Virus record (IMG/VR): IMGVR_UViG_2824993554_000003
Coordinates: 1 to 64,000 of that record
Direction: 5' to 3' (one strand)
Source: a virus
Lineage: Duplodnaviria > Caudoviricetes
Length of the DNA stretch: 64,000 nucleotides
This document shows positions 1 to 63,574 of the stretch, piece by piece; position 1 is the first letter of the stretch, and each line of letters starts with the position of its first letter. The position numbers and the translations under genes are program-made. The notes below the pieces were generated by a model. That model made no database searches. It worked only from the letters and a program-made list of their open reading frames with translations, and was not told where the DNA came from.

Positions 1-44
1 TCATAATCCTTGTGTCGGGGGTTCAAATCCCTCCTCCGCTACCA
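1..44 (+). tRNA. 3' half of tRNA-Met (CAT), cut by the window edge; prophage target
   Basis: T-CAT-AA anticodon loop, T-arm GGGGG-TTCAAAT-CCCTC, acceptor strand CTCCGCT-A-CCA. Confidence 0.9.
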
Positions 45-1620
45 CACGTCCCCCCAACATTTCGGCCCGATCGCCAATCAGCGCTGATAGGTGGCCGATC
101 ACCTCGGCTTCTACGCGGCCATCCGGCCGATCTCTGATGACGACGCTGTGGACGAGTTCGCGGAATGAGGTGAAGACCTCGGCGCCGCTGATGTCGTCGA
201 GGTCGTTCAGTCTGGCAGCTAGATTTTCCACGGTTCGCTTATATTGGCCGAAGGCCTGCGGATGTAGTTCGATGGCTGGAGACTGTGGCACGGTTGCGAG
301 CTGCGACTTGATGCGGTCGCGCTCGCCCTCGAGCGGCTTATATTGCGCCTCTATGACTTCAATCGGCAGGACGCCACGGGTCAAAGCCTGCATCAGGCGA
401 TCGAGCTGGCCGTTGAGGTCGAGCAGCTTACGTTCCAGTGCCGCCCTATCCCGAACCGCGTCGGCGATCTCTGCGCGTCTTTCCTCCCGATAGACTCTGA
501 CATATTCAGCCAGCAGCTCGGGATGGGCCAGTTGTTCTTTGAGGCCGGAGATGACGGCGGCCTCGATCTTGTCGAGCCTGTAGCGGCGCTCATTGGTGCA
601 GGCGCCGCTTTCGGTCGCGCGGCTGCAGCGGATCCTGATGGCGCCGCTATCCTTATGCCTGTCATGGATCGACATGCCGCCGCCGCAGTGTTCACACCGC
701 AGGATGCCGGAGAGCAGCCGCTTCGGCCGGCGCGTGTTGGTAATGCCTCCCTGCCTCGTGGCGCGGCCTTCGATGATCGCCAGTGCGGTTTCGTAGGTTT
801 CGGTATCGACCAGGGCCAGGTGCGGCGCGTCGGCCTCCCGCCATTCTTCCTGCGGGTTCGGGCGGCTGACCCGCTTCCCGGTCTCAGGATCCCGCACCAT
901 GCGAATCCGGTTCCAGATAATCCGCCCGGCATACAGTGGATTGCGGATGATGCCGTTCCCCCGCTGTGCCGATCCGCAGATCGTGCTTGAATTCCAGGTG
1001 GCGCCGCGAGGCGGTGTTATTAGGTCGCGATTCAGGCCGCCGGCGATCTCCCGAGAGTTCCGGCCAGCGATGACTTCCGCATAGATGCGCCTGACGATCT
1101 CAGCTTCGGGTTCATGGATTTGCATAACGCCGGGCTGGCCAGGTGTCGGCCGATAGCCATAAGCCCGGCCGCCGGCGTGACGGCCGTCCTTGATGACGCC
1201 AGTCATGCCGCGCCGGATCTTGTTCTTGAGGTCGGCCAGAAACAGGGTGGAGACGAGGCCGCGGATGCCGATCTGAATGGCGTCTGCGGCGCCATCATGC
1301 ACGGCGATGATCTCGACGCCGGCATGCGTCAGCCGCTTGTAAATGCCGGGGAGATCTTCCTGGTCGCGCGAGAGGCGGTCTAGAGCTTCGACGACGACGA
1401 CGTCGAAGGCGTTTGCCTTAGCATCGTCCATGAGACTGAGTAATCCGTCTCGTCCGAAAATCGACGCGCCCGTGCGCGCTTTGTCGAAATAGGTTCTGGC
1501 GACGACGAAGCCGCTTTTGGCTGCGAATTCGCGGCAGAGATCGATCTGGTCGTCGACGGATCTGTCGTTCTGGAGATCAGTGGAGAAACGGGCATAGATT
1601 GCCGCTCGCTTGGACTGCAT
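1..1620 (-). CDS. Large serine recombinase (prophage integrase)
   Basis: YARFSTDLQ catalytic motif, DRLSR, recombinase domain, CEHCGG...C zinc ribbon, coiled coil. Confidence 0.95.
   Translation of the reverse strand: MQSKRAAIYARFSTDLQNDRSVDDQIDLCREFAAKSGFVVARTYFDKARTGASIFGRDGLLSLMDDAKANAFDVVVVEALDRLSRDQEDLPGIYKRLTHAGVEIIAVHDGAADAIQIGIRGLVSTLFLADLKNKIRRGMTGVIKDGRHAGGRAYGYRPTPGQPGVMQIHEPEAEIVRRIYAEVIAGRNSREIAGGLNRDLITPPRGATWNSSTICGSAQRGNGIIRNPLYAGRIIWNRIRMVRDPETGKRVSRPNPQEEWREADAPHLALVDTETYETALAIIEGRATRQGGITNTRRPKRLLSGILRCEHCGGGMSIHDRHKDSGAIRIRCSRATESGACTNERRYRLDKIEAAVISGLKEQLAHPELLAEYVRVYREERRAEIADAVRDRAALERKLLDLNGQLDRLMQALTRGVLPIEVIEAQYKPLEGERDRIKSQLATVPQSPAIELHPQAFGQYKRTVENLAARLNDLDDISGAEVFTSFRELVHSVVIRDRPDGRVEAEVIGHLSALIGDRAEMLGGRVVAEEGFEPPTQGL
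33..45 (+). repeat. Left att core CCTCCGCTACCAC
   Basis: Identical 13-mer at 62005..62017; overlaps the tRNA 3' end. Confidence 0.88.
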
Positions 1621-1724
1621 TCTTTTTCCTCGTTCTGCCGTCTGGCCGCCGCGCTGTCGCGCCGCGCGTCAGCTTTCGCCAAAGCGCGAACGAAATCAAG
1701 CAGCAGCGGATCCGGAGGCATCAT
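1380..1724 (-). CDS. Small protein upstream of and overlapping the integrase; candidate directionality factor
   Basis: ATGA coupling to the upstream gene; PLLLDFVRALAKADARRD resembles the ORF at 63571..63699. Confidence 0.5.
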   Translation of the reverse strand: MMPPDPLLLDFVRALAKADARRDSAAARRQNEEKECSPSERQSMPVSPLISRTTDPSTTRSISAANSQPKAASSSPEPISTKRARARRFSDETDYSVSWTMLRQTPSTSSSSKL

Positions 1725-2233
1725 CTCCCGCGCCTCCATTGTTCAAACGCGCTGCGGAAATCTCTCCAGCGGCCGGCCGCAACCTCGTCGGTGTCGAGAT
1801 CGTTCAGCGATTCAATGCGCAAGATGAAATGCATCTTCGTCTTGATGCGCTCGAAATCGGTGGCGTCGCGCAGGTCGTGGCGCTCGATCAGGAACTGTCG
1901 GAACGCCTGGTCGTTTTTGCACTTCATCGCGCACTCGGCTGCGTGGCGCTTTGGCTTTGGCTGCCTGCGCAGGAGATCGCGATAGGCGCGGCTGCAGCGG
2001 TCGAGCATGTCGAGCAGGAATTGCTGGCGCTCGCCGGCGCGGATCAGGAACTCCTGGAAGGTGAAGGGGACGTCGGCGGCGATCGAGGCGATCGCGCGCG
2101 GTTTATCGTCGGCCGGATCCCGCACAACGAGGGAAAGCCTGATGCCGTCGGTCTCGATCGACCAGTCGGCGCCGACCATCGACAGGTCCTGCCGGATCAT
2201 CTCGAGCTTTCGCTTTTCGGCCTCCGTCGCCAT
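1721..2233 (-). CDS. Hypothetical phage protein
   Basis: Translationally coupled ORF in the leftward operon. Confidence 0.7.
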   Translation of the reverse strand: MATEAEKRKLEMIRQDLSMVGADWSIETDGIRLSLVVRDPADDKPRAIASIAADVPFTFQEFLIRAGERQQFLLDMLDRCSRAYRDLLRRQPKPKRHAAECAMKCKNDQAFRQFLIERHDLRDATDFERIKTKMHFILRIESLNDLDTDEVAAGRWRDFRSAFEQWRRGR

Positions 2234-2826
2234 CAGGAACCTTTCGCCTCCTGTACGGCGGGCGCTGTATCGCCAACGGCCATTGCGTTCTGGAACATGA
2301 TTGGCTGTTGGTCGCTCGGGATGCGGTGCCGGCCGCGGGCCATCGGGTGTTTGGGCGCGCCGTCTAGCGTGGTGCCGAGACAGACAAGGTGCACCATGTG
2401 GTGACGGGCGCGGGCGAGCAGCTTATCCCTCGTAGGGATCATGATCGGCTGCGGCAGGTTTCCCCAGGCAGCGAGCGCCGGCTTGCCGCGGTGGCGCGCC
2501 ATGTTGAAAGCCTCGTCGATATAGAGGTTGTTGTCGGGGCCGATCGCCTCGACGATGTTTCCCGGCAGGTCCTTCGGCTGCGAGGCGCGGAAGGCGAAGA
2601 GGTTGACGACGTAAAGGCCGCCGTAGCCCCAGAGCGTGGCGAAGCCGATAAGCTGGCGGATGGTCGGATCGTCCTTCTCGGCGTCGGCCGTCGAGGGATT
2701 GAGCATGCAGGCAGCCAGGGCGGGCTTTTGCTTGTCCCATGTGCGGCGCAGCTCGTAGCGGTAGCGCCCGCAGGGCGAGATCGTTGCGTCCTTCCGCATG
2801 ACCGGCTTGAAGAGGTCGGAGGTCAT
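2233..2826 (-). CDS. DUF1643 family protein
   Basis: SPCGRYRYELRRTW, MLNPSTADA..DDPTIR, VVNLFAFRA, AAWG, PKHP motifs. Confidence 0.88.
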   Translation of the reverse strand: MTSDLFKPVMRKDATISPCGRYRYELRRTWDKQKPALAACMLNPSTADAEKDDPTIRQLIGFATLWGYGGLYVVNLFAFRASQPKDLPGNIVEAIGPDNNLYIDEAFNMARHRGKPALAAWGNLPQPIMIPTRDKLLARARHHMVHLVCLGTTLDGAPKHPMARGRHRIPSDQQPIMFQNAMAVGDTAPAVQEAKGS

Positions 2827-3044
2827 GGTTGTTCCTCCAGAAAGCAATCCACGGCGCCGCGAAGAGACCGCATGGCGTCATTGTATCCCTCGCGAAAGCC
2901 GGGTGGCTTGCTGTCGAAGATGTTGTCGGCCTTCGCCTGGAGCTCGGTGACCGTCCAGTTTTTGGCGCACCAGTCGGCAAACTCCTCCATCTTCAGGCGA
3001 AACAGCTCCGCGACCTGGTATTCGAGATTGATGCGGTCGCTCAT
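2823..3044 (-). CDS. Hypothetical protein
   Basis: Overlapping start/stop coupling. Confidence 0.65.
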   Translation of the reverse strand: MSDRINLEYQVAELFRLKMEEFADWCAKNWTVTELQAKADNIFDSKPPGFREGYNDAMRSLRGAVDCFLEEQP

Positions 3045-3574
3045 CCGTTCGACCTCGCCCTATTCGCGGCGACCGCCTGTTTCATGGCCGCCCGGGCGGC
3101 GATCAGCTGGCGGAGGCTTTCGGCGGATTGGCGGATGGATTTGCGGGTGCGGAGCTGCGCCAGGCGGATACGGTTCGGCCTCGGTTCAAACCAGCCGCGC
3201 GCGGCGTACATCAGGGCGTCGAATTCCGGCTGCAGCGGCTGCGAGTCCCAGATCGGGAGCGGCCCCATCATCACCATGGCGCCGTGGCACCAGAGATCTC
3301 GGAACATCTCCAGCACGGTGCACTGAACCGGATCTTGGCCCGAGCTGTAATAGTCGGGCTTATCCGGGCTGTTGAAACCGAAGAAGCAGATCAGGCCGGC
3401 CTCATGGTTCCACATCGACGGATGGTTCAGGGTTCCGTTCCAGGTGCCGCCATGCGTCCAGAGGGTGACGTCGGCAAGATCGCCGAGCAGCTCCGGGATG
3501 CCGGGAACGACCTTGAGGAGGTCGGTATCGAAGTCGTCGCACCACATGGGGCGAAGGGCGGGGCTCTGGTCCAT
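3041..3574 (-). CDS. Hypothetical protein
   Basis: Coupled ORF starting MDQSP after a GAGG RBS. Confidence 0.65.
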   Translation of the reverse strand: MDQSPALRPMWCDDFDTDLLKVVPGIPELLGDLADVTLWTHGGTWNGTLNHPSMWNHEAGLICFFGFNSPDKPDYYSSGQDPVQCTVLEMFRDLWCHGAMVMMGPLPIWDSQPLQPEFDALMYAARGWFEPRPNRIRLAQLRTRKSIRQSAESLRQLIAARAAMKQAVAANRARSNG

Positions 3575-3825
3575 CAGTTCGACCTCGCCTTGCGATGTGC
3601 TGCCACCTCGGTAGCGTGGGCCGCGACCTGCACCGGCAGCTGTTCGATTGTGATCTCCAGCGCCTTGGCGTGGTTTTCCAGCGGCATCATGGTGGCGATG
3701 ATCGCGGCGCAGGCGCCCGAGCATGCGGCCATGGCCTCGACCTCGGTCAAGACGCCGGTGCGGACGCCGTTTGCCATCATCTCGACGATCAGGTCTCGGA
3801 TCTGGATCTGGGCTTCCCTGCTCAT
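3574..3825 (-). CDS. Hypothetical protein
   Basis: Coupled ORF. Confidence 0.65.
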   Translation of the reverse strand: MSREAQIQIRDLIVEMMANGVRTGVLTEVEAMAACSGACAAIIATMMPLENHAKALEITIEQLPVQVAAHATEVAAHRKARSN

Positions 3826-4040
3826 ATCAGCGACCCCCTGTTTCTCGATTGGCGGCAGGACGGGCAGAAGTGCTGCCAGGCGTCGGCGTGGCGCTCGATC
3901 AGCCAGCGGGCGATCTTGGCGACGCGGACGGCTTTGTCGCGGGCGGCGCGCGGATCGGCGTCCATCACAGATTCCATTGCTGTCGGGCAGCTGTCGCAGG
4001 TGATCCGCGCCGTGCCGGCGGTGGCGTCGGTCTTCAGCAT
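3822..4040 (-). CDS. Small Zn-finger-like protein
   Basis: ITCDSC ... HFCPSC. Confidence 0.65.
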   Translation of the reverse strand: MLKTDATAGTARITCDSCPTAMESVMDADPRAARDKAVRVAKIARWLIERHADAWQHFCPSCRQSRNRGSLI

Positions 4041-4231
4041 CGGCCTTGCTCCCTGAGTGCGGCGACGAACATGCTGATCGCCGGTAGCGAGAAGGGGCGA
4101 TCGGCGACGCCGCCGTGATCGCCGGCGACGACGCGCCGGATGGTGACCACCTTGCCGGGCAGGGTGATCTTGCGCTGGCGCTGGGCAGTCAGCAGGGGGC
4201 GGCCGGCGAGCTTTCTGACGTGGATGGTCAT
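4034..4231 (-). CDS. Hypothetical protein
   Basis: Coupled ORF; C-terminal SLPAISMF motif shared with 5611..6081. Confidence 0.6.
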   Translation of the reverse strand: MTIHVRKLAGRPLLTAQRQRKITLPGKVVTIRRVVAGDHGGVADRPFSLPAISMFVAALREQGRC

Positions 4232-4719
4232 TGGCCGCTCCAGGTCCACAAGCCCTGCAGGCCGCGCGCCGGGACGGGCGGTTCAAGCAGCTCGATATCG
4301 AGCATCGGCCAGCCCCAGTTGAAGGTGCCTTCGCGGTCGCTGTCATTGCCGGCGTCGTCGCCGAACTCGCGGGCGCATTCCTCGCCCGACTTCGGCTCGC
4401 CGACGGTGACCGTGCAGAGCACGTGGGCGAGCGGCAGGAAGGTCGGGACGGCGCTCTTCGGCTGCTCGAGGATACGATCGAGGAGGGGAATGGCGAGATC
4501 CGGCAACAGGCAGGCCCCTGTGTTGCGAACGGTTTTCGTCAGGGCGATGCGCAGCGCCAGGACCTCGGCGCGCCGCATCGGCCGTGCGCCAGCATGGATG
4601 GCGAGGCGCTGGCCGATCAGTGATTCCGGCGGTCGCCAGCCGCGGAACTCATAGGGCTTGGCGCCGATCGCGATCAGCGACGTCCATGGCTGCCAGACGG
4701 TGAGGGCTTTCATCATCAT
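4228..4719 (-). CDS. ASCH domain protein
   Basis: KALTVWQPW..LIAIGAKPYEFRGW, LAIHAG, PVPARGLQGLW. Confidence 0.85.
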   Translation of the reverse strand: MMMKALTVWQPWTSLIAIGAKPYEFRGWRPPESLIGQRLAIHAGARPMRRAEVLALRIALTKTVRNTGACLLPDLAIPLLDRILEQPKSAVPTFLPLAHVLCTVTVGEPKSGEECAREFGDDAGNDSDREGTFNWGWPMLDIELLEPPVPARGLQGLWTWSGQ

Positions 4720-5147
4720 CGCGAGACCACCTCCTGCAGTGGCGCGTTGGCGATCTCCAGCAGGATATCGGCGTGGCAGGGCTCGCCCGGCTTGCACCAG
4801 CAGGCGAGGTTGAAGCCGCGCAGCGCCTTGGCGATAGCGGCGGGCGTCGGGACTGGGTAGAGGGGCCGGGTGTTATGCGGCCCAGTGGCCGACACTTCGG
4901 CCTTGTGGCAGGCGATTGCGAAGTCGATCGCTTCCCGCTTTGACGGGCAGCTCTTGACGATCGTGCCGTGGCTGAAGACATCCCATAGCGCCGGCTTGAC
5001 GAACGGATCCTTGCTAAAGACGAAGTGATTGCCGAAGGGCGAGGTGCGATCGACCTTGATCGCGTCAAGGCCGTTGGCGGCCCTCGACGCGGCTTGCAGG
5101 TTGAAGCCTTTCTGGCGCGACAGCTGGATTCGGACGGGCGCGGTCAT
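4716..5147 (-). CDS. DUF4326 domain protein
   Basis: VDRTSPFGN and LRGFNLACWC...CHADILLEIAN. Confidence 0.85.
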   Translation of the reverse strand: MTAPVRIQLSRQKGFNLQAASRAANGLDAIKVDRTSPFGNHFVFSKDPFVKPALWDVFSHGTIVKSCPSKREAIDFAIACHKAEVSATGPHNTRPLYPVPTPAAIAKALRGFNLACWCKPGEPCHADILLEIANAPLQEVVSR

Positions 5148-5614
5148 TGAACCACTCCGGCCTGCGTCAGTTGGCCCTTGCCCTCGACGATGCCGAAGGT
5201 GAAGACGGTTTCGGCCTCGGACCACCAGCAGGCGTCTATGGCGTGAACGCCGGGTTTCAGGCCGCCGTTGACGACGAGCTCCTGCAGGGTCGGCTGCATC
5301 CCGTCCGTGTCGCGATCGACCCGGAAGTTGTTCGCCTTGATTGGGATGTCGCGATCGGTTTCGAAGCTGCCGTCATCGCGGACGGTGAGTTCGAAATCGC
5401 CGTAATAGATGGAGGCACTAAACCTCACCACCTGACCGTCGACCAAGCGAAGGATGCCGAAACCTTCGTCCAGATCCTCATCCTGCTCCTCGACCGGCCG
5501 TAGCATCCATCCGAGTTCGGCGTGGTGGCAAATGAAGGCGTTGGGATCGGTCTGCAGCGCCGGAAGCTCTTCATCCAGCCAATCGGAAGGGATCCATTTC
5601 ATCTCGTCGCTCAC
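5144..5614 (-). CDS. Hypothetical acidic protein
   Basis: Coupled ORF. Confidence 0.65.
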   Translation of the reverse strand: MSDEMKWIPSDWLDEELPALQTDPNAFICHHAELGWMLRPVEEQDEDLDEGFGILRLVDGQVVRFSASIYYGDFELTVRDDGSFETDRDIPIKANNFRVDRDTDGMQPTLQELVVNGGLKPGVHAIDACWWSEAETVFTFGIVEGKGQLTQAGVVQ

Positions 5615-6081
5615 TGGCCGAGGCTCCCTTCGCTGCGCTGCAGGCGTGCGGCCGCGAACATGCTGATCGGCGGCAGGCTGATCGCCACGCGGACGGTGCG
5701 GGCGGAGCCGCTTTTATCGGTGGCGGTGGCGGTGATGCCGACGATGATCTTGTCGTCGCGGATCTCGGTATCGGGAATTTCGGGAATGAGCCCGTGGCTG
5801 CGGCAGAAGACCCAGGCGCAGCCGACCGTCCGGCCATAGTGCCGATCGATATCGGAATAGCTCATGCCGCTGCGCAGGAATTGCGCGACCGCCTCGACCG
5901 AGAACGGCTTGCGCTGCCCCGGCTCCGGCGCCACGGCATCGATCAGGCCGAGCTCCGTCAGCTTTTCGCCAAGCGTCGTGCGGTGCACCTGGTAGCGCTT
6001 GACGATCTCGGAGCGCGTCAGGCCTTCGGCGACCAGCCGGCGCAGGGTGTCGTCGTCCGGAAGCTTTTTCGGTTTCGTCAT
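5611..6081 (-). CDS. Putative tandem HTH protein
   Basis: GLTRSEIVKRYQVHRTTL and GMSYSDIDRHYGRT HTH-like segments. Confidence 0.65.
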   Translation of the reverse strand: MTKPKKLPDDDTLRRLVAEGLTRSEIVKRYQVHRTTLGEKLTELGLIDAVAPEPGQRKPFSVEAVAQFLRSGMSYSDIDRHYGRTVGCAWVFCRSHGLIPEIPDTEIRDDKIIVGITATATDKSGSARTVRVAISLPPISMFAAARLQRSEGSLGQ

Positions 6082-7274
6082 TCTGCGGCCTCCTTGGCGA
6101 AATGGGCGGGCAGGGGCGGGTAGCCGTTGTGCTCGACGCCCGAAAGCAGCCGGCCGGCGCGCGCCTTGGTGACGCGGAACATGCCGATCGGCTCGCGCAT
6201 GCCGTCGCAGCTGGGCTTCGCCTGGCGGCCGTCGACGTCGAGCCAGATAGCGTCGTTCGTCACCATGCTGCTTTCGGTGTGGCCGTTCTCGGCGCTGGCG
6301 ACGATCCAGTTGCCCCATTGCTTGAAGAGGAAGGGGGTATCGGCGATCTCGCACTGATCGCGCAGCGCGTAGATCCAGTGCGGGTGCGCCGGACGGCAGC
6401 CGACGCCGCTTTCTCCGCCGGCGACCATCCAGCCAATCCGCGGGATTTCGTCGCAAGCTGTGAACTGATGGCAGTTGCAGCAGGCAACATCGTAGTCTCC
6501 GGTATCGGCGATCTGGCTGACGTGCTGAAGTTCGGACGAGCCTATCCACCCGCAATGCTCGCATTTTGTCATGAAGTATTCCGGGGCAATGAACTCGTGG
6601 CCCTGAGGGCTTCGGGCGCGCCGGCCCGTGGGGAGCCAGCGCTTCCAGTCGATCGGGCCTAGAGACGGCTCGTTCGACACCCAAAGGACGGCGGCCGGGA
6701 TTTCGTGAAGGATGGGCAGGCGCTCGTCAGCGCGTTTCTGATCCTCGACCGAGACGCCGAGCCAGACGTTTGGAAGAGGCAGCCCCTTGGTATGGCCGCA
6801 GTGAAAATCGGCGGCCCAGCTGGCGCCTTCCTCGCAATCGATCCGCATCGCCTCGGTCATCAGGCGATCGTGCAGGCCGGACGCCTTGAGATAATCCCGC
6901 ATCCGCTCCGGCCGCTTGGTCAGGACCTGGAAGATGTGCTCGGGCGCCAGTGCCATGACCGCGAAGATCTTGTCGATCCACTCGTCCGGCACGCCCTCGG
7001 CGAAGAGATCGCCATGGGCGCAGACGAAGATCATCCGCGGACGCGACCACGTGAGCGGCTGGGTCAGCCACTCTTCATTGAAGCGCACTTCGCCGCTCCA
7101 GACCGGGCCGGCCTTGCTGTCGCGGGTGAGGCCGGCGCGGCTGGGGTGATGCTGCAAGCGTGTGCCGGCGAGCTTCATGGCGTAGCAGTTGGTGCAGCCG
7201 GGGGAGACGATCGCGCAGCCGGTGATCGGGTTCCAAGTCGCGTCGGTCCATTCGATCTTGGTGCCATCAGACAT
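6078..7274 (-). CDS. DUF5131 (phage Gp37/Gp68) family protein
   Basis: TKIEWTDATWNPITGC..VSPGCTNCYA, FQVLTKRP, NVWLGVSVEDQ, GGESG, PFLFKQWG. Confidence 0.92.
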   Translation of the reverse strand: MSDGTKIEWTDATWNPITGCAIVSPGCTNCYAMKLAGTRLQHHPSRAGLTRDSKAGPVWSGEVRFNEEWLTQPLTWSRPRMIFVCAHGDLFAEGVPDEWIDKIFAVMALAPEHIFQVLTKRPERMRDYLKASGLHDRLMTEAMRIDCEEGASWAADFHCGHTKGLPLPNVWLGVSVEDQKRADERLPILHEIPAAVLWVSNEPSLGPIDWKRWLPTGRRARSPQGHEFIAPEYFMTKCEHCGWIGSSELQHVSQIADTGDYDVACCNCHQFTACDEIPRIGWMVAGGESGVGCRPAHPHWIYALRDQCEIADTPFLFKQWGNWIVASAENGHTESSMVTNDAIWLDVDGRQAKPSCDGMREPIGMFRVTKARAGRLLSGVEHNGYPPLPAHFAKEAAE

Positions 7275-7878
7275 GGGCGCGCTCCTTCTTGTTCTCCTCG
7301 CGGTAATGCGCGAGCAGCTGATCGCCGGCGGCGGCGTCGATGTGATCGAGCTTGAGGAGCGCCCAGTTCAGACCATTGGCAAAGCCGCGAGCTTCGGCGC
7401 GCTGGTGATCAGCGATCTGGCGGGTGGTTGCCTTGATCTGCCGATCTTCGATAGCGGTCGTTACGGTGACGGCGAAAGCGCCGCGGGATTTCGGTTCGGC
7501 GGAGCAATATTGCACCATGCCAGGCTCGCCGGTGACCGGCACCGTGCGCCACCATTCCTGCCGGATGCTGCTGGTTTCGCCGACGTAGCGCTCGTCATAT
7601 CGGGCGTCGGCGCCGGTGTAGTAATTCGCCGCCTCCTTGAAATGATGCAGCGCGTAGTGGCCCCGCGCCCAATAGCCCATCAGGTCCCCGTCGAGGTCCC
7701 GGAGTTCTTCGATCTGAATGCCGTGGGTTCTCTCTTCGGCCCATTTAAAGCTGGCGAGATGAAGGTATTCCGTCAGTTCCTCACGCGTGATCAGGCGCAT
7801 GTTAGGATGATCGGCTGAGGTACGACCTTCCTTGTCGGTCAATTCCTGCCAGAGTCGGTTGGCGAGCGTTTCAGTCAT
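7267..7878 (-). CDS. Hypothetical protein
   Basis: Long ORF in the operon. Confidence 0.7.
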   Translation of the reverse strand: MTETLANRLWQELTDKEGRTSADHPNMRLITREELTEYLHLASFKWAEERTHGIQIEELRDLDGDLMGYWARGHYALHHFKEAANYYTGADARYDERYVGETSSIRQEWWRTVPVTGEPGMVQYCSAEPKSRGAFAVTVTTAIEDRQIKATTRQIADHQRAEARGFANGLNWALLKLDHIDAAAGDQLLAHYREENKKERAHV

Positions 7879-8077
7879 TGCTATTTTCTTTCTTCGCTGA
7901 AGCAGTGATGTCCCGAACGTCGCACTGAAAGCCGTCGCGGTAGGCCCACGCCGTCGCGGTTGCTATTCCTTCGGAGACGAGCTCGTCGACCGCTGCGATC
8001 TCTTCGCGGGCTGCCCATTCCTCCTGGCGCAGTCGCCGGCCGGCGAGGAGCCCAGCTTTCATTTGAGCCTTATTCAC
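7871..8077 (-). CDS. Hypothetical protein (GTG start)
   Basis: Fills the gap between coupled ORFs. Confidence 0.5.
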   Translation of the reverse strand: MNKAQMKAGLLAGRRLRQEEWAAREEIAAVDELVSEGIATATAWAYRDGFQCDVRDITASAKKENSND

Positions 8078-55079: not shown

Positions 55080-55094
55080 GTTCTTATTATGTTC
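55080..55094 (-). promoter_or_regulatory. LexA (SOS) box
   Basis: GTTC-TTATTAT-GTTC. Confidence 0.78.
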
Positions 55095-55138
55095 GCCCGA
55101 TGCCGGGAGTCAATAATCAATCTTGTGCAATTGCTCTT

Positions 55139-55340: not shown

Positions 55341-55370
55341 CGTGTGCCGGCGCCGTGGCGTTGCACCGGC

Positions 55371-55586: not shown

Positions 55587-55736
55587 TTGGTTTCCGATCT
55601 ACAATTTCGACGAGATGACAATATCAGAAAACAACCTGAATGCGCTTGTGACGAGTGTATCTGGTTACCGTTTGATTGACGTCGTCGATTGCCACGTTCT
55701 GATGCTGCGCGGGCGGCCATTGTTCAGCGCCTTCAA

Positions 55737-55763
55737 TAAAAAAGAGCCCCGCCGAGACGGGGC
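55737..55763 (-). terminator. Intrinsic terminator homologous to 53303..53328
   Basis: GCCCCG stem plus T-run on the minus strand. Confidence 0.7.
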
Positions 55764-56322
55764 AATTTTGGAAAGGACGGATCGCACAGGAAGGGACGAG
55801 TTACATACGGCCCCGTCACAAAGGGCCACCCGCGCGATCCGTCCCTCTAACCGACAAAGCAATTGTTAGGTCCTGTACGGTTTCGGACAGAGGGATTTAG
55901 CCGGCCAAAGTCGAATCATACAATGAGAGAATATTGCCGACACAGTTTCGCCAGCCGGAAGAAAACCCCGCTTCGCGGGGCTTTAAATGCAGAAGTGTCC
56001 GATTTCGTACAAAGCAGTCTGCTACCGATACAACCACATTGCAATTTCTGCTAACCTTCATATGGTCGCTCAGCGATCTGCTAAACCCCAAGCATCTACT
56101 TCTCCTGTGCGTTGGGCGGCCGCTAATTTTCTAATTGCTCCAGGCGGCCGCGCAGAAGCGGTTGGAAGAAGGAGTAGACCATAACCTCTGCGCGGTCTGA
56201 ACCCCTGGAAGGGGTAGATCGCGAATAATTCAGAGCAAACGCTATTCGACGATCCAAGTGGTTAACCACCAGTCGGAGGATGCCGTTCCCGTACAGTTCC
56301 GCACAAATCATTCCGCCGCGGA

Positions 56323-56523
56323 TCAAACTAGGAGCCGCAGCAGCGCTGCCTCGTCCTTCACCCCATGCCGGAATGACTGTATAATCCGGCGGGCTAAATC
56401 CTCACGCCCAACGTCTGTGTTGATTTGCTTCACCGAAATGACGTGGTCATAGACCCTTTGGCAGAGCGCCACCTCGGCGTCGTTCAGCACGTTTTGCGCC
56501 TGCGCACTATGGAACGGGATCAT
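56323..56523 (-). CDS. 66-aa protein, copy B
   Basis: Paralog of 53551..53748; GGGAGGG RBS. Confidence 0.75.
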   Translation of the reverse strand: MIPFHSAQAQNVLNDAEVALCQRVYDHVISVKQINTDVGREDLARRIIQSFRHGVKDEAALLRLLV

Positions 56524-56607
56524 GACGGCCCTCCCTTCCCTATAAAAAGGGTAGGGCGGAAAAGGGCCGGATCAAGCGTGGAGGCTGTGGACTATCGGTC
56601 GCACCAG

Positions 56608-56895
56608 TCATTCTTCTTCGTCGGTTGCGAGCGGCCGGTGTGAAGGCGTCCGGTCCACCGCGCCGCTCGACACGATCCGCAAGCCCTTTTCAGCCAGTAG
56701 CTCTTTCAGCTTTCCCTTGGCGATTAGCGCCAGCTTCCGTTCCTTCATGCACTTCGCGTGCGATCCGATCTGCGGCGTGTCTATGCCCGAGAACGGAATA
56801 CCTTCCCCCAACAACCGCATGTTTTGCCCGTCGCATTTTACAGTGTCGCCATCGACCGCCGTCAGCGATGCGCAGAAGATCAATTCAGCGATCAT
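56608..56895 (-). pseudogene. Truncated thermonuclease (SNase)-like gene
   Basis: VDGDT, RLLG, GIDTP motifs; C-terminal half missing. Confidence 0.7.
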
Positions 56896-57226
56896 CCTTG
56901 CTTCCTCGCATTTCGTTTAAACGCATCAGCCGGTGATAGTATTCCTCGACCTTTCGAATAGCCTCGCGCGGTTCAACTTCGAAGCCTTGGTGGAGCGTCA
57001 GCCTTCGGCGCACACTTGGGCCAAGAACACTCCATTGCCACATGCCGTTATTCGGCCCGCCGCTCTCCATTCGTATCCTCCCGATAATTATTTCCCCGTC
57101 ATAGCCCAGCCAATCGAGATCCGTCGGCTGATCGCGTTCGTCGATCTTCGTGCCGCGCCATTTGTAGAGTGGTTGGTATCGAGTGTGCATGTTCCGGAAC
57201 ATCGCCCCGGCCGGCCCAATAATCAA
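56885..57226 (-). CDS. Hypothetical protein
   Basis: IGRIR..GMWQWS ORF divergent from the ligase. Confidence 0.6.
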   Translation of the reverse strand: MIIGPAGAMFRNMHTRYQPLYKWRGTKIDERDQPTDLDWLGYDGEIIIGRIRMESGGPNNGMWQWSVLGPSVRRRLTLHQGFEVEPREAIRKVEEYYHRLMRLNEMRGSKDDR

Positions 57227-57270
57227 TCTGGGTTAGTTGCTTTTTAAGCTGTTGTTGTTGTCATGGTGGC

Positions 57271-58320
57271 ATGACAAAGGCGCCTCGTAAGCTTTCCAAG
57301 CCGCTGCGCGGCGACGCCGAAGCTCCGATCCGAAGCAGGCCGCGCCAAAAGCGCGATCCAGCCCAGCCGAACCTTCTCCTCGATCCAATGCCGGCGCGCA
57401 TCGAGCCATGCCTGGCCCTGTTGAAGTCGCGCCCGCCGAAAGGGCCGCAATGGGTGTTCGAAGTGAAATGGGATGGCTACCGCGTTGCAGTCCACATCGC
57501 GCCGTCCGGCGTTCGCATCCTGACGCGCGGCGGGCACGACTGGACACACCGCTTCCCGGCGATCGCGGCCGAAGCGGCGCAGCTCGGCGCGGCGACGGCA
57601 ATCCTCGATGGCGAAGCCGTAGTGTTGGACGACCAGGGCCGCTCGGATTTCGGCAAGCTGCAGCAGTCGCTGGGCGGCCGGGGCGGGAAGTTGAATTCCG
57701 GCGCATCGGTCCTGATGGCTTTCGATCTTCTATATTTCGATGGCCACGATCTGACGAAGACAGAGCTTTCGACGCGACGGCATCTGCTCGAGGGCCTCAT
57801 CGCGCCCGGTCGAGAAAGCGCGATACGCCTCTCCGAAGACGTCGACGCCGACGGCGAGCAGCTGCTGCGCGTCGCTTGCAAGCATGGGCTCGAAGGCATC
57901 ATCGCGAAAGACCGCAACAGCACGTATCGCAGCGGCCGCCTCGGCGACTGGCTGAAGATCAAGTGCATCCAGAGTGACGGTTTTCTGATCATCGGATATG
58001 AGAGGTCGATGGCATCCTTCGGGGGCATCGGGCGGTTGCTGCTCGCCGCGCGCAAGGGCGACCAACTCGTCTATGTCGGGGGAGTGGGAACGGGGTTTAA
58101 CGAACGGTCCGCGACTGAACTCCGGGGGCAGATGGACCAGCTGGTCATCGGCAAGCCGGCTGTCGATACCGGGCGGAAGCGTAATGCCGTCTTTATCGAG
58201 CCGAAGCTTGTTGCCGAGATCGAATATCGGGCGTGGACGCACGACGGCAAGCTGCGGCATGCGTCGTATAAGGGGCTGCGAGAGGCGGCGGACGAAGTTT
58301 CGATTTGTGAAGTGGAGTGA
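57271..58320 (+). CDS. ATP-dependent DNA ligase (LigD ligase-domain type)
   Basis: EVKWDGYR, LDGEAV, AFDLLY, EGIIAK, WLKIK, LRHASYKGLR. Confidence 0.93.
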   Translation: MTKAPRKLSKPLRGDAEAPIRSRPRQKRDPAQPNLLLDPMPARIEPCLALLKSRPPKGPQWVFEVKWDGYRVAVHIAPSGVRILTRGGHDWTHRFPAIAAEAAQLGAATAILDGEAVVLDDQGRSDFGKLQQSLGGRGGKLNSGASVLMAFDLLYFDGHDLTKTELSTRRHLLEGLIAPGRESAIRLSEDVDADGEQLLRVACKHGLEGIIAKDRNSTYRSGRLGDWLKIKCIQSDGFLIIGYERSMASFGGIGRLLLAARKGDQLVYVGGVGTGFNERSATELRGQMDQLVIGKPAVDTGRKRNAVFIEPKLVAEIEYRAWTHDGKLRHASYKGLREAADEVSICEVE

Positions 58321-58341
58321 AGCTCAACAGCGCGCGGTAGA

Positions 58342-59229
58342 TCAACGGGCAGCCGATCTGGACATAGCTCTTTGTTCGGCCTTGCTTGCGAAAACGCGTT
58401 CGGGGTGGACAGTCTCCGGACCAAAGATCATTACCTCCGAGCCCCTCCCGTAGTTTCGGGCGCTATATCCAATGCTGAATTGTTCCTGATCGCAATCACT
58501 ATAGATACGGCGAATCTGTTCGACATTGTCGTATGAGGCGACCCATGAATGACGCTCGATCGCCTTCACCACCTCGGCGAGATCGACGTGATCAGCGTGC
58601 ACAAAATGGTTCTGGTATAGTGAAGCACCCTTCACATAGTAAGGCGGATCAATATAAATCAGGCTGCGTGGTTTGATAGCCGGCACGTGACTGGCCAAGA
58701 ACGCGCTTGCATCAAGGTTCGTTAAAGTTATTCGACGACGAAACATTCCAATCCTCCTGATCCTCTGGATCAGGTCGTCTTTGTTGAACCGGCAATCAAT
58801 CTTCCAATCGCCCTCTTGGGAAAGACCGCCAATCATGCCGCCGTTCAAGATGCCTGATCGATTTGTCCGGTTTAGAAAGAAAGTTGAGAATCCGACTTCC
58901 ATTACATCGCGATTCTGAGTTTCTCTTTTAATCTCTCTCGCGGCGAGCCAAGTCTCGACGGTTACAGGTGTGGTCTGGATCTTTTTCACAAACTCGTCGG
59001 TGTGGTCGATCACTGCTTTCCAGAAAGCGTAGACCGACCAGTCGATATCATTGATGTGAATGTGCCTCACTCGCTCCGAAAAAAGCAGATCAAGGGCTAC
59101 CGCGGCGCCTCCCGCGAATGGTTCGGCGTAGTGGGCGCCTTCAAGCTTGTTCAACTCCAGCAAGGTGGCAAAGTATGGGGCAAGTTTGCCTTTGCCGCCC
59201 GGATAACGCAGGGGGGAATAGTTTGTCAT
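58342..59229 (-). CDS. Dam-family DNA adenine methylase
   Basis: SPLRYPGGK, EPFAGGA, INDID, FFLNRTNRSG, YIDPPY. Confidence 0.92.
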   Translation of the reverse strand: MTNYSPLRYPGGKGKLAPYFATLLELNKLEGAHYAEPFAGGAAVALDLLFSERVRHIHINDIDWSVYAFWKAVIDHTDEFVKKIQTTPVTVETWLAAREIKRETQNRDVMEVGFSTFFLNRTNRSGILNGGMIGGLSQEGDWKIDCRFNKDDLIQRIRRIGMFRRRITLTNLDASAFLASHVPAIKPRSLIYIDPPYYVKGASLYQNHFVHADHVDLAEVVKAIERHSWVASYDNVEQIRRIYSDCDQEQFSIGYSARNYGRGSEVMIFGPETVHPERVFASKAEQRAMSRSAAR

Positions 59230-59280
59230 GAGAGACTCCGTTTCCCCTGAAATAGCACCGACCTCGTCACTCGGCCAGCG

Positions 59281-60723
59281 TTATTTCCCATTCTTTTCAA
59301 GATGTTCGAAAAGCTTCTCAAAATAGGGCTGAAGCCGATCCCATCCCGTGATGATTTCGAGCGAGGACGGTATAGCTAAATGGCTGTGGATGGCCTGGTT
59401 AAGATGATCCAGCGTATGAGTCTTGCCTTGGGTGGCATTCCCAATGTCTCGCGCATCATCAAGGCGCTTATCAGCTTTCTGAGGGTCAATGATCGTGAGT
59501 ACTGTTGCGACTTTTGTCCGCAGTTTCACCTGCGATTCATGCCAGCCCTGAGGATGTGGACAGGGAACTTGCATGTCATCGAGGAACACCATCGACGCTT
59601 TTTCAAGAAAGATCCGGACCATAACGGCAGCAATATGTGGACTACTATCGACGTTGAGCTTGCGTAGTTCACTGTAGAGCTTATTCAGCCCGTGATTGCT
59701 TATGCGAAGACCCGACGCAGCAAGCCATTTTCTTTGCTTGACTGGCTTCGACCGGGCGATGTTATGGGCTGAATTTGCCTGCTGCACGGCGCCGCCCGTG
59801 CCCGAGCTGGTGCTGTTTCCGCCCGCTGGCGCAACGCCTCCCGCGTTTCCGCCTCCGCTCGAAGATCCTGTCCCGCCAGCTTGCGTGGGGGAACTGGATT
59901 GCGTGCCAGTGCTCCCGATCTGAGGCTTCTTTCGTACATTGAGATTTTCAAAACCCTCGATAAAAGTCTTTTGAAGGTCGGCGGAGGTGACTTTTGTCTC
60001 GGTGAAATCCTTCTTCCCCATCTCCAGGTACATTGCGACCAGTAGCGCGCATGCGGCTTTTACATCGCCATTCTCAGGGGTCAGGTTTCCCGCCCTATCG
60101 AAGGAAAGACCGAGGGTGGTCGCAATATTCGGCGAGCCAAGAACCCTTTCTACTGTCGTGGTTTTTCCAGCAATGCCGTCCATTAGATGGTCGGTGACTT
60201 CCCCGTTCTGATCAAGATAGTTCAGGGCGGTCATCCATCGAGCGAACCTGCCTTCCGATGCGTCGCTTCGGGCGGTTGCAACAGCATTCCATGCAACAAC
60301 ACCCTTGCCGCCCATAGCATTGTAGTGTTTGCGCTTGATCCATTCGAAGGCGTCTTTGCGGCCTAACACCACACACTCCACCTTATCAATGCCCATAGCC
60401 AGGAACGTTGGGCTCAATTTCTTAAAGATAGGGTATCCGGGCGTACCCGCAGCAATCGCTGGACTGACCAGTGTCTTCAATGCGGTGATGCGGCGGTTTC
60501 CTTCCAATGCGATGTAGCCGCCGGGATTATTGGGATCGTCGGTCACGATCAAAAGCGACGAAGGATCGAGACCATTCATATCAATAATATCTTGAGCTAG
60601 CTCTGACACCTTGTGCGTCTTCTCATCGGATAAGATGATTTGCATCGCCTCCCGCTCGGTGCCGACCTTCTTGTGACGGAAATTTTCAACGTCGAGTGAA
60701 ACCGAGCTGATGTCTATTTGCAT
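59281..60723 (-). CDS. ParB/Srx-like N-terminal domain protein with HEPN-like C-terminus
   Basis: LDVENFRH, ALEGNRRITALK; Gly/Ser linker; RIFLE...LNQAIHS. Confidence 0.7.
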   Translation of the reverse strand: MQIDISSVSLDVENFRHKKVGTEREAMQIILSDEKTHKVSELAQDIIDMNGLDPSSLLIVTDDPNNPGGYIALEGNRRITALKTLVSPAIAAGTPGYPIFKKLSPTFLAMGIDKVECVVLGRKDAFEWIKRKHYNAMGGKGVVAWNAVATARSDASEGRFARWMTALNYLDQNGEVTDHLMDGIAGKTTTVERVLGSPNIATTLGLSFDRAGNLTPENGDVKAACALLVAMYLEMGKKDFTETKVTSADLQKTFIEGFENLNVRKKPQIGSTGTQSSSPTQAGGTGSSSGGGNAGGVAPAGGNSTSSGTGGAVQQANSAHNIARSKPVKQRKWLAASGLRISNHGLNKLYSELRKLNVDSSPHIAAVMVRIFLEKASMVFLDDMQVPCPHPQGWHESQVKLRTKVATVLTIIDPQKADKRLDDARDIGNATQGKTHTLDHLNQAIHSHLAIPSSLEIITGWDRLQPYFEKLFEHLEKNGK

Positions 60724-61042
60724 GCTGCCCCTCAAATCAACTGGAAGTATGTATCTGTTATTAAGTAAACGAGCGCGCAAATAAAGAGGGGGAAGAAGAT
60801 AAAGGGAATTTGCGCAGCGGACCGAGTGCGGACCGATTGATTGGCAAAAATCAGAATGGACGGGAACATAAAGAAACCGGCTGTCCCGAATGGGTTTTCG
60901 CGGAGCCTTCTCCGTTCGTGGGGGTCTGATCGCCAGAAAACTCAAGAAAACCTGTAGCTAAGTCGATTTAGCTCCGACACGCCTACACGCGCGCGACCAA
61001 ATGTGAGAGCGTTCTCCCTGTGCGAATCTTTGGAGCGACGAG

Positions 61043-61780
61043 ATGGCCGAACAATGGACATGCCCATTTTGCAACCATCACCAACTCTTTACAGACGCCA
61101 ATCTTCATTCAGCGCTCATTAAATTGCACATTGGCAAGTCGACACACGGGGAGACCGGTTTGGCTTACACTGCAATCCGTTGCGTCAACGCGGATTGTAA
61201 CGAAGTCGATTTGTCAGTTAGGTTTGTTAAGACGGTCGCTCGTGGCAACGGTGCTTGGCTGATAGAGAAGGACATCCAAGGCTGGCAACTCCGCCCAGGC
61301 AGTTCCTCCAAACCTCAGCCCGAATACATCCCCGCTACGCTTCGCGAGGATTATTTGGAAGCGTGTGCGATCGCCAGCACCAGTCCCAAAGCCTCAGCGA
61401 CGCTAGCGCGACGCTGCCTTCAGGGTATGATCCGAGACTTTTGCGGCATTGCCAAGGGCCGCCTGATAGATGAAATCAAGGAACTCAATAAGCGGCTGGA
61501 TGACGGAAGCGCGCCCCGCGGTGTGGAACCTGAGACTGTCGAAGCGATCGACGCGGTGCGCGACATCGGGAACATCGGTGCGCATATGGAAAAGGACATC
61601 AACCTCATTATTGATGTCGAATCTGGTGAAGCTCGAGCCCTGATAGAACTGATCGAGATGCTCTTCGACGAGTGGTATGTCGCACGACACAAGCGAGAGC
61701 AAAGGTTGGCGGCAGTTAAGACTATCGCTGCGGAAAAGAAAGCTGCGATCGCTGCAGGCCGGGCAGGCAACACTGGATGA
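61043..61780 (+). CDS. DUF4145 (HEPN) domain protein
   Basis: CPFC, EDYLEA, SPKASATLARRCLQ, RDIGNIGAH. Confidence 0.88.
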   Translation: MAEQWTCPFCNHHQLFTDANLHSALIKLHIGKSTHGETGLAYTAIRCVNADCNEVDLSVRFVKTVARGNGAWLIEKDIQGWQLRPGSSSKPQPEYIPATLREDYLEACAIASTSPKASATLARRCLQGMIRDFCGIAKGRLIDEIKELNKRLDDGSAPRGVEPETVEAIDAVRDIGNIGAHMEKDINLIIDVESGEARALIELIEMLFDEWYVARHKREQRLAAVKTIAAEKKAAIAAGRAGNTG

Positions 61781-61954
61781 CGCTTCGCCAGCAGATGATC
61801 GGGCTCTCGTCGTCAAAGACTGACGAATGCAATGCTGATCGAGGATTTTCCCGCAGATGCGTTAGCGACCTCGCGTTGGAAGCGCTACCAAATGCTACAC
61901 TATCGCGCAGTCTCTGCCCACATATTGCGCCCAAAAGCATGCCGGCACGCAAAA

Positions 61955-63574
61955 TTATGCTGCGAACCGGCCCAGAATAATTTGGGGGGATAGCGTGAGT
62001 CGGACCTCCGCTACCACTAAAACAGCCGACAGTTCCTCGCCGGCTATCGCGGACAGCCAGCCCTTAATCTCATAGCGATATTCCTGACCCGGTTCTCTCG
62101 GGTGGACGATCACGCTTGAAACGACCTGTCGGAAGGCCGTTCCCAGCTCGATCGATGGCTCGGCGCCGGGGCTGTTGACAATCTCGGCAATGTTTTCGAC
62201 ATCCTCTCGAAATTTCTCCACCGCTTTCGGCTTCAGTTCGATGATGTTCGTTGGCGGCTCTTCGGCTTCAAGTTCCAGCCTGAGGCGGCTGCGTTCCGAT
62301 TTTAGCCCGGGCAAAATCGCCAAGACGTCCTCTTCCTCGATCGTTCCCTTCGCCACCTGCTCTAGCACGCGCGCAATCTGCGCCTGGACGTCCGCCAGTG
62401 CGTTTTCCTTCGCTCCACGGCTGTTGCGCCGCTCCATGGCGATACGCTTGCTCTCTGCCTTGTATTCCTCGACGTAGGCATCGATCACCGAGGTATCGGC
62501 GAACATTATCCGCAGGCGCTCGATTACGTCCCTCTCGATCTTCGCCACGTAGTAGCGGGCGTTGTTGCTGCAACTCTTGGATTCCTTATGGGTGCTGCAG
62601 ACCACACGCGGGCCGCTGCGGTCAGCGCCGATGATTGACAACCCGCCTCCGCAAGCTCCGCACTTGAGCAGTCCCGACAGCAGCCGCTTGTTCTTTGGTG
62701 CCGTGTGCGCATGTTTCCCGCCGACAGCTTCCTTGCGGTTTCTCACGGCCTGAAACAGGTTGTCGTCGATGATGCGCAGGTGAGGAACGTCGATTTCTTC
62801 CACGACCGACTCGTCATTGACGCGGGATACGCGCCGGCCGGTGGCAGGATCTTTGATCATTCGGACTCTGTTCCAGATGAGCTTACCGGCGTAGAGCGGG
62901 TTGCGCAGGATGCCGTAGCCGCGCTTGTCGTTGCCGTTGATCGTGCTGGCGTTCCACTGCTTCCCGCGCGGGGCAGGGCATCGCTCGTCGTTGAGCATGG
63001 CGGCTATCGTCCTCGGGCCGATGCCCGCGGCGTAGAGCTCGAATATGCGGCGCACGATCACCGCTTCTCCCTCGTCGATCTCCAATTGGCCCTTTTGACC
63101 GTAGATCGGCTGGTACCCGTAGGCCTTGCCGCCAGGATGGCGCCCAGAGCGCACGACGCCGGTCATGCCGCGCTTTACCTTGCGGGCCCCTTCCTCGCGC
63201 TGCATCTGTCCGACAATGCCGTACATGCCGATCTGGACAGTATCCATCAGGCCGCCGTTGACGCATTGCATCTCGATGTTGCGGAACTTCAGCACCTTGT
63301 GCACGTGAGCGAGGTCGGCAATGTCACGCGATACGCGATCGGTGGATTCCGTGACCAGGATATCAAACTCGCCCCGTTCGGCGGCCGTCATAAGATCAGC
63401 AAGGCCAGGACGGCCGAACATTGAAGCGCCCGACTTTGCCTTGTCCGAAAACTGCTTGATAACCTTGGCGCCGAGCCGGCCAGCGAAGTCCCGGCATAGG
63501 CTGAACTGGTCCTCGACCGATTTATCGTTCTGCAAATCGGTCGAGTAGCGAGCGTAGATCACCGCGCGTTTCAT
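61955..63574 (-). CDS. Large serine recombinase of a second, tandem element
   Basis: YARYSTDLQ, DRVSR, CGACGG; colinear with 1..1620. Confidence 0.95.
   Translation of the reverse strand: MKRAVIYARYSTDLQNDKSVEDQFSLCRDFAGRLGAKVIKQFSDKAKSGASMFGRPGLADLMTAAERGEFDILVTESTDRVSRDIADLAHVHKVLKFRNIEMQCVNGGLMDTVQIGMYGIVGQMQREEGARKVKRGMTGVVRSGRHPGGKAYGYQPIYGQKGQLEIDEGEAVIVRRIFELYAAGIGPRTIAAMLNDERCPAPRGKQWNASTINGNDKRGYGILRNPLYAGKLIWNRVRMIKDPATGRRVSRVNDESVVEEIDVPHLRIIDDNLFQAVRNRKEAVGGKHAHTAPKNKRLLSGLLKCGACGGGLSIIGADRSGPRVVCSTHKESKSCSNNARYYVAKIERDVIERLRIMFADTSVIDAYVEEYKAESKRIAMERRNSRGAKENALADVQAQIARVLEQVAKGTIEEEDVLAILPGLKSERSRLRLELEAEEPPTNIIELKPKAVEKFREDVENIAEIVNSPGAEPSIELGTAFRQVVSSVIVHPREPGQEYRYEIKGWLSAIAGEELSAVLVVAEVRLTLSPQIILGRFAA
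62005..62017 (+). repeat. Right att core CCTCCGCTACCAC
   Basis: Identical to 33..45. Confidence 0.88.

Follow-up and report, generated by a model that had tools for sequence, protein, structure and literature searches.

Integration at a tRNA-Met gene swaps the C-terminal tails of phage serine integrases: a candidate proteolytic switch

In the canonical large serine integrases, such as those of Listeria phage A118 (the LI integrase), Bxb1 and phiC31, the phage attachment site attP lies outside the integrase gene int. Tojo et al., in 1996, are said to have found that integration of the Myxococcus phage Mx8 alters the C-terminus of its integrase IntP. The 2014 Islander paper names the Mx8 and SSV integrases, both tyrosine recombinases, as enzymes that "extend across attP", and states that serine integrases were not known to target tRNA genes. 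In mycobacteriophage BPs and its relatives, the integrase Int and the repressor Rep are both tagged at their C-termini, integration removes the tag of Rep, and the integrase is responsive to proteases such as ClpXP (PMC3694055). The Paracoccus phage phiPam-6 (vB_PamS_Pami6) is mitomycin-inducible, encodes a serine recombinase and resides at a tRNA-Met gene between 17-bp flanking repeats, CCCTCCTCCGCTACCAT; no other serine-recombinase phage of Paracoccus is listed with a known site. Here we describe a stretch of 64,000 nucleotides (the window), the first 64 kb of the 100,607-bp virus record IMGVR_UViG_2824993554_000003, in which the 3' end of a tRNA-Met gene is occupied by two temperate phages arranged in tandem, an architecture that we regard as firmly established, and in which the reading frames of two large serine integrases cross the att core. 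An initial annotation of this DNA had invoked the integrase of Mx8, which extends across attP, and the loss of a tag upon integration of BPs as precedents, and both are indeed on record. An attP inside int and the removal of a tag by integration are thus already known; what is new is a serine integrase whose tail is swapped for the antisense sequence of a tRNA gene.

The two integrase genes, int1 of prophage 1 (positions 1..1620, minus strand) and int2 of prophage 2 (61955..63574, minus strand), each encode a protein of 539 residues (P0001 and P0002, respectively), and the two proteins are 42% identical (224 of 530 aligned positions). Both match the N-terminal resolvase-type catalytic domain PF00239 (E-values of 5e-22 for Int1 and 4e-23 for Int2) and contain its YAR[FY]S motif, both match the recombinase domain PF07508 and the zinc ribbon PF13408, and both are recovered by PHROG matches, Int1 with phrog_95; long paired helices corresponding to the coiled-coil insertion are predicted at residues 349-443 of Int1 and 343-437 of Int2. 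The two genes read the 13-bp att core CCTCCGCTACCAC in one and the same frame, as GTG GTA GCG GAG or VVAE, at 33..45 (attL of prophage 1) and at 62005..62017 (the junction of the two prophages), just as the initial annotation had stated. Beyond the core, the sequences differ: Int1 ends in ...GGRVVAE followed by EGFEPPTQGL (codons at 4..33, minus strand), which is read from the antisense strand of the tRNA gene and is closed by a TGA at 1-3, the antisense of U33-C34-A35 in the anticodon loop. Int2 ends in ...SAVLVVAE followed by VRLTLSPQIILGRFAA, a non-polar tail with the end ..GRFAA and thus an Ala-Ala-COOH terminus; this tail and its stop codon (61955..62005, minus strand; TAA at 61955-61957) lie within the final bases of prophage 1. 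In the present arrangement this tail terminates Int2; in the free phage it would terminate Int1. The earlier prediction that excision would exchange the tails is borne out, in its geometry, for the excision of prophage 1. An integrase 99% identical to Int1 is found in a provirus record (G006), which breaks off at the integrase stop codon and has only one core.

The core itself was found by a repeat search: it is present in exactly two copies in the 100,607-bp contig and in none on the other strand. Since 304 distinct 13-mers recur in the window, a repeat of 13 bp is by itself not beyond chance, and its significance comes from its place: it covers homologous codons of two integrases and the acceptor end of a tRNA, and it overlaps the repeat of the inducible phage phiPam-6, within whose 17-bp att repeat 12 of the 13 core bases fall. 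The second junction is real DNA, since a single Logan contig of a public run, the probable source run, spans 60000-64000 with zero differences. Among the contigs of that run there was no loose end or alternative junction at 62005, although such contigs drop rare forms and are silent on excision. The tRNA gene is represented by its 3' part at 1..44 (plus strand), which by sequence reading begins at U33 in the anticodon loop and runs through the encoded CCA, with the anticodon CAT at 2-4, the T-arm at 17-33 (the T-stem bases GGGGG at 17-21 pair with CCCTC at 29-33) and the acceptor strand with ACCA at 34-44. The record starts within this gene, its 5' part preceding the contig start, and for this reason ARAGORN called no tRNA in the window; on relatives that contain the whole gene, ARAGORN called tRNA-Met(cat) at five of the six loci tested. 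In the lysogen, int1 converges on the tRNA-Met gene with an overlap of 44 bp. Transcripts of the integrase gene would be antisense to the tRNA's 3' half, the last 11 nt of which come from phage DNA.

This locus resembles Mx8, with its integrase forms IntP and IntX, and SSV in that the integrase gene contains the attP core and the C-terminus of the enzyme is altered upon integration. However, it is an analogue rather than a member of that group: their enzymes are tyrosine recombinases, whereas the proteins described here contain serine recombinase domains only; the piece that is replaced here is a short tail, predicted to be disordered and conserved family-wide, rather than a part of the fold; and the replacement is read from the antisense strand of a tRNA gene. 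With BPs, the locus has in common that a C-terminal piece encoded across attP is removed by integration, its role as a tag being putative here. In BPs, however, attP is part of the repressor gene, and the integrase, a tyrosine recombinase, keeps its own tag upon integration; here the core is located in int, no repressor crosses the core and the swap affects the tail of the integrase. The canonical large serine integrases have the same domain set, short att sites, inverted-repeat arms and a central dinucleotide, but the integrases described here target tRNA genes and carry the attP core inside int. phiPam-6, which in addition to the core bases shares the tRNA-Met target and the use of a serine recombinase, was compared by its att repeat, its integrase being absent from the hits in the phage collection; in the passages of its description that were covered we found no mention of an integrase frame crossing the site or of a change at the C-terminus. 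The integrase of the Rhizobium phage RR1-A (NC_021560) is 67.6% identical to Int1 and has the attP form, with 10 of its last 11 residues identical to the tail in the window, but it ends in VA rather than AA; no mention of its att site or tail was found in the searchable parts of papers (including PMC11476347). Likewise, we found no description of a serine integrase frame that crosses attP or of such a tail swap in the literature covered, which included few subscription journals.

To understand the tails, it is necessary to look at the att site. An inverted-repeat search identified the P arm repeat TTTGGGGGGA at 61981..61990 and its mirror, the P' arm repeat TCCCCCCAA, at 49..57 within int1, where it encodes L-G-G; in the rejoined attP the two are separated by a spacer of 30 nt. 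Their dyad symmetry places the predicted centre of the site, and with it the predicted crossover dinucleotide CC, at the left edge of the core, at 62005-06 and at 33..34. The same centre is obtained from a perfect inverted repeat of 11 bp that surrounds the core in a provirus of the Int2 type as well as from the G-run and the C-run of a free phage (L051). The G-run occupies bp 17-22 of the half-site in the phage P arm and bp 13-17 in the arm provided by the tRNA gene. For the LI integrase, the motif of the zinc domain is located at 16-24 in attP and at 11-19 in attB (PMC3783163), and the outward shift of 4-5 bp in the P arm observed here matches the shift of that motif. Thus, the site fits the serine-integrase type: it is short, has imperfect inverted repeats and a central dinucleotide at the presumed crossover, and its outer motif is shifted between attP and attB. 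A mirror motif in the native B' arm downstream of the tRNA gene was sought in one genome, with nothing clear to be seen in that case. It follows from this anatomy that the tail's S-P codons and the G-G pair in front of VAE would be the DNA site read as protein. As judged from the sequence, the tail is therefore made up of two parts: the proximal 7-8 residues (..R..SP) appear to be set by the DNA site that the integrase binds, and the distal part, a motif (hydrophobic-x-hydrophobic-G-R-aromatic) that is usually followed by [A/V/T]-A-COOH, appears to lie beyond this site and is conserved as a peptide.

The proximal part is explained by DNA, in line with a neutral origin of the tails. On this view, genome compaction would have placed attP across the 3' end of int, translation would continue until a stop codon is met in whatever sequence comes next, neither of the two tails would be functional, and the apparent conservation would stem from the bound DNA. 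In favour of this view, the S-P or P-P codons are antisense to the G-run in the P arm, which is also mirrored by the G-G codons before VAE; the ends of the tails vary among family members; the tRNA-coded tail is dictated by the tRNA and is beyond the reach of selection; and natural read-through variants exist (P0024 as compared to P0023). The distal tail (..ILGRFAA), however, lies 27-48 nt away from the predicted crossover, and it falls outside of the serine-integrase half-site, which is known to be about 25 bp long. Moreover, the comparison of the window with RR1-A is hard to square with neutrality: the last 11 codons are 88% identical, with three synonymous differences and one non-synonymous difference, and the 60 nt past the stop codon are only 22% identical. 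Relative to the free phage L051, 8 of 11 third codon positions differ, but only 5 of 22 first and second positions. Across the relatives, the terminal Ala-Ala is encoded by GCA GCA, GCT GCT, GCC GCC and GCC GCA, and all three stop codons are used. Both the codon-position pattern and the loss of similarity immediately after the stop codon indicate selection on the peptide rather than on the DNA. In addition, the only length difference among the short GRFAA-type tails (17 versus 16 residues, P0043) corresponds to one whole codon, and A, AA and VA ends are strongly enriched (see below). We therefore consider a purely neutral origin of the tails improbable. The distal tail would also be exposed: in AlphaFold models built from alignments of 40 sequences, residues 521-539 of P0001 and 512-539 of P0002, past the confident fold, are predicted to be disordered, with a pLDDT (predicted local distance difference test) below 50.

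The tail swap is not a peculiarity of this locus but a property of a large, mainly alphaproteobacterial integrase family. From roughly 1,800 homologues at E below 1e-30, we took the best 120 clusters at 90% for Int1 and the best 150 representatives at 50% identity for Int2, which gave a pool of 244 full-length proteins, and assigned tail classes with a regular expression for T-arm antisense motifs. In this pool, 143 proteins have tRNA-antisense tails (EG[FL]EPPT.GL and variants for other tRNAs), and none of these ends in alanine. The remaining 101 proteins carry other tails, among them a few rows that are fragments or misaligned ends; 55 of these 101 end in alanine, 36 in AA and 11 in VA. The survey of homologous attP tails for AA ends, which had been proposed in the initial annotation as a check, is thus positive in the protein databases. 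In the set of 50%-representatives alone, AA ends are found in 22 of 69 non-tRNA tails. For comparison, an alanine frequency of 0.12 predicts 1.45% of AA ends, and 7 of 94 other open reading frames (ORFs) of this contig end in AA; the excess has a binomial p of about 6e-16, a value not corrected for relatedness. AA-ending tails span 12-43 residues, indicating that AA tracks the end of the protein and not a fixed distance from the core. On a FastTree phylogeny of the 101 integrase bodies without their tails, the AA state requires 25 changes, compared to 29.8 +/- 2.3 after shuffling (40 of 1000 shuffles gave 25 or fewer), and AA is thus spread through the family rather than confined to one clade. 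The motif of the distal part (hydrophobic-x-hydrophobic-G-[RTN]-aromatic) is present in nearly all classes of non-tRNA tails, at the very end in some and internally in others. Two variations of the gene end may be mentioned here. The integrases L236, L237 and L239, from Mesorhizobium and Bradyrhizobium genomes, end in ..AVAEERHRQDPTITYDSGFRVVAGEGLEPPTPGL: a fossil VAE and the beginning of an attP-type tail precede a second VAG with a tRNA tail, which looks like the trace of an earlier recombination within the gene end. In P0024 as compared to P0023, the stop codon after ..MLVA / ..MMVA has been lost and the tail is 19 residues longer, a read-through variant in which the terminal V-A is buried.

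The tail classes separate by the state of the genome: non-tRNA tails belong to unintegrated genomes or to the inner members of arrays. Among complete IMG/VR phages with terminal repeats, one (G001) ends in ..FGRFAA and one (G003) in ..ISRAA, with no tRNA in either record; the integrase in the virion genome of the isolated phage RR1-A ends in ..SPQIILGRFVA, and that of Microcystis phage Mae-JY30 in ..FGVIAA. The latter (PP438422, L334) is 68% identical to Int1 and has the core codons of an alphaproteobacterial tRNA-Met (VVAE); the recorded cyanobacterial host may not be the true one. In the table of 120 clusters for Int1, contigs larger than 100 kb account for only 1 of 32 non-tRNA clusters versus 24 of 85 tRNA-type clusters (Fisher p 0.0015). 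A search for the 12-nt core pattern in 19 bacterial genomes yielded 48 sites, 21 with tRNA-type tails and 27 with other tails, of which 5 were set aside as chance matches to leave 22; one of the 21 tRNA-type sites comes from the unpublished genome G027, on which no claim rests. Many of the sites are paired on the same strand at a distance of 15-62 kb, with a tRNA-tailed integrase at one end and VAE plus an attP-type tail without an integrase body at the other, as would be expected for attL and attR. Tandem arrays similar to that in the window are present in G029 and G028, and probably in G020 and G026. In several genomes, three cores are found on the same strand (G025:C25 at 23490, 52113 and 76112; G024:C1 at 526948, 567921 and 586547; G018:C7 at 617257, 679113 and 686442). 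In G025 one of the intervals between the cores has no integrase at its end, and G024, G018 and G010 (L204) contain some tRNA-type sequences without an adjacent integrase or with a truncated tRNA; this suggests decayed elements or other types of islands that use the same tRNA-Met.

What might the distal tail do? The C-terminal signals known to be recognized by ClpX include several that end in AA, i. e. the ssrA tag, RseA(1-108) and CtrA (listed in a review table), and the tail that integration removes from Int1 ends in F-A-A. Among the readings considered, the most probable is that the distal tail encoded by attP is an ssrA-like C-terminal degron, a reading to which we assign somewhat less than even odds. 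On this basis we propose, with a probability of roughly 0.35, an integration-dependent proteolytic switch in the integrase gene: recombination into the tRNA gene would delete a peptide that is sensed by a protease, excision would restore it, and tandem neighbours would trade such peptides and thus cross-regulate their mobility. Since the attP core lies within the last codons of int, the integrase of the free phage ends in a peptide from the far (P) arm of attP; in the integrated state it ends in ten residues from the antisense strand of the T-arm and anticodon arm of the tRNA, with the stop at the anticodon loop; and in a tandem array the inner integrase ends in the P-arm peptide of the outer phage. 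Throughout this large family, integration and excision alike thus rewrite the end of the enzyme. Under the proposal, the distal tail would be a regulatory peptide encoded by the unintegrated genome only. Integrase made after infection or after excision may be short-lived and tied to the activity of a host AAA+ protease, and the prophage-encoded enzyme, lacking the signal, may persist and be ready to excise as soon as a directionality factor appears. That Int2 carries the signal of phage 1 would be a by-product of tandem insertion.

Several observations weigh against this proposal. AA is far from universal among the tails of att sites, metagenomes and complete phages. The nearest relatives of Int1 (8 clusters, RR1-A, Mae-JY30 and the tail of the window itself) end in AA (3), VA (4), TA (1) or otherwise (3); the recombinase of Mae-JY29, which is 32% identical and without the VAE anchor, was excluded from the tail counts. 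A third complete phage with terminal repeats (G031) ends in ..KLAASL, so that AA is found in two of three such phages. The 22 credible att-site tails from bacterial genomes end in AA in 2 cases, in A in 8 and in hydrophobic-hydrophobic-Cys in 5; among metagenome loci, mostly distant relatives, 3 of 25 non-tRNA tails end in AA, these tails having been taken from the longest ORF, a choice that here and in one further scan gave some probably wrong frames. The native tails of the Int2 clade, found in the attR of a provirus, in two viral contigs and in the attR of one genome, are about 50-66 residues long (..R..RQQERTEISLGTWQI.L..AI..YL..) and do not end in AA. Moreover, the homologues are related to each other, and the p-values overstate their independence. 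Finally, the fact that one motif is common to the different tail classes, terminal in some and internal in others, suggests a function that is not necessarily proteolysis; beyond labelling the integrase for a protease, the tail may have an additional role or a wholly different one.

The main alternative, which builds on this last point, is that the distal motif alters what the integrase does and not how long it lives. Possible docking partners of the motif, in trans, are another integrase subunit, the coiled-coil or zinc domain, a directionality factor and a host protein. Integrase of the free phage would be tuned to the integration reaction between attP and attB, and the prophage form without the motif would behave otherwise, as reported for IntP and IntX of Mx8. 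The occurrence of the motif in nearly all non-tRNA classes speaks for this alternative, since it includes tails that do not end in AA and the long tails of the Int2 type, which keep a G-x-W motif internally (ISLGTWQI.., followed by 35-45 more residues). Like docking motifs, it is conserved as a peptide and disordered in the monomer models, and integration of Mx8 is reported to alter the C-terminus of IntP. On the other hand, the AlphaFold monomer shows no docking, and the alternative offers no account of why the stop codon so often follows two to five residues past the motif, with AA or VA at the end. We know of no C-terminal regulatory tail in serine integrases. A reading of the Q-x-x-L-G-x-F part of the tail as a motif that binds the beta-clamp was also considered but not retained. 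Taken together, we regard a switch in activity or partner choice as possible but rather unlikely.

The proteolytic switch has a further potential consequence for tandem arrays. The initial annotation had suggested that an incoming phage tags the integrase of the resident element for degradation and thereby sets a hierarchy of excision; in an adaptive version of this idea, a phage that inserts next to the tRNA gene would put a degron on the resident integrase and suppress the excision of the resident. Int2 does carry the AA tail of phage 1, and arrays in which the inner integrase reads the tail of its neighbour recur in the genomes with tandem arrays listed above. However, the map would be identical whether phage 1 had inserted into attL2 or phage 2 into attR1, so that the order of arrival is not recoverable and the proposed sequence of events is only one of two histories. 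The claim that a tag is handed to the neighbour holds insofar as Int2 bears VRLTLSPQIILGRFAA, but this tail is of a foreign type and the exchange is not like-for-like, given the long tails without AA in the Int2 clade. The right att site of prophage 2 was sought, but there is no credible third copy of the core or of its sub-parts in the 100,607-bp contig, which terminates at a gene end. The right end of the prophage is thus outside the contig, and we infer the own attP tail of Int2 from its relatives. The junction at 62005 itself bears on excision: the P2' arm repeat AACAGCCGACA, identified by inverted-repeat search at 62021..62031 within int2, has no mirror TGTCGGCTGTT in the contig, although in the Int2-type provirus both mirror halves flank the core. 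The junction is therefore a hybrid of the P arm of phage 1 and the P' arm of phage 2, which is not a normal attL for Int2, and excision of prophage 2 on its own would already be disfavoured. A hierarchy of excision thus already follows from the hybrid junction, and a degron is not needed to explain it. In our view, adaptive cross-tagging of a resident phage is very improbable.

Between the two integrases, prophage 1 occupies 46..62004, and the left part of prophage 2 covers 62018..64000, this prophage reaching at least to base 100,607 of the contig. A PHROG scan of 94 ORFs revealed a siphovirus-like prophage between int1 and int2, with methyltransferases, a replication initiator, terminase, portal, major head protein, tape measure protein, tail protein J, holin and DNA ligase, and a second prophage past int2; the small ORFs adjoining the integrases match PHROGs of unknown function. 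Three consecutive DNA methyltransferase genes are located at 15252-20872 (485, 754 and 288 residues; phrog_799, phrog_116 and phrog_56), followed by a pair of ORFs on one strand at 21257-22005, one for a HicB-like antitoxin (172 residues) and, upstream of it, a small one. Two tandem repeats of 24 nt (22448-22495) within the start of the replication-initiator gene (22008-23405) could be iterons. The right arms of the otherwise different prophages have modules in common, at 53397-58292 in the window and at 89586-98172 in the contig (L002): The segments 55358-55885, 56147-56628 and 56624-57249 are 90-93% identical to contig positions 95071-96822, and each right arm has a gene for an ATP-dependent DNA ligase (57271-58320 and contig 97151-98197) with 79% nucleotide identity. 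Part of this module is in addition duplicated within phage 1 (53461-53727 and 56231-56499; 55111-55243 and 57217-57349).

The value of serine integrases for biology and genome engineering lies in one-way reactions that are governed only by a directionality factor. In difference to the statement made in 2014, hundreds of serine integrases target tRNA genes, and the type of the tail, tRNA-antisense or attP-encoded, provides a sequence marker that separates integrated from free or tandem copies in assemblies. With RR1-A and phiPam-6, culturable systems are available for a direct test of the proposed switch. If it is true, the rewriting of the C-terminus of the enzyme by recombination would be a second layer of control and a new principle for serine integrases, and it would provide a compact case from nature in which the regulatory tail of a protein is edited by a DNA rearrangement. 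In these phages, the direction of the life cycle would then be coupled to the lifetime of the integrase.

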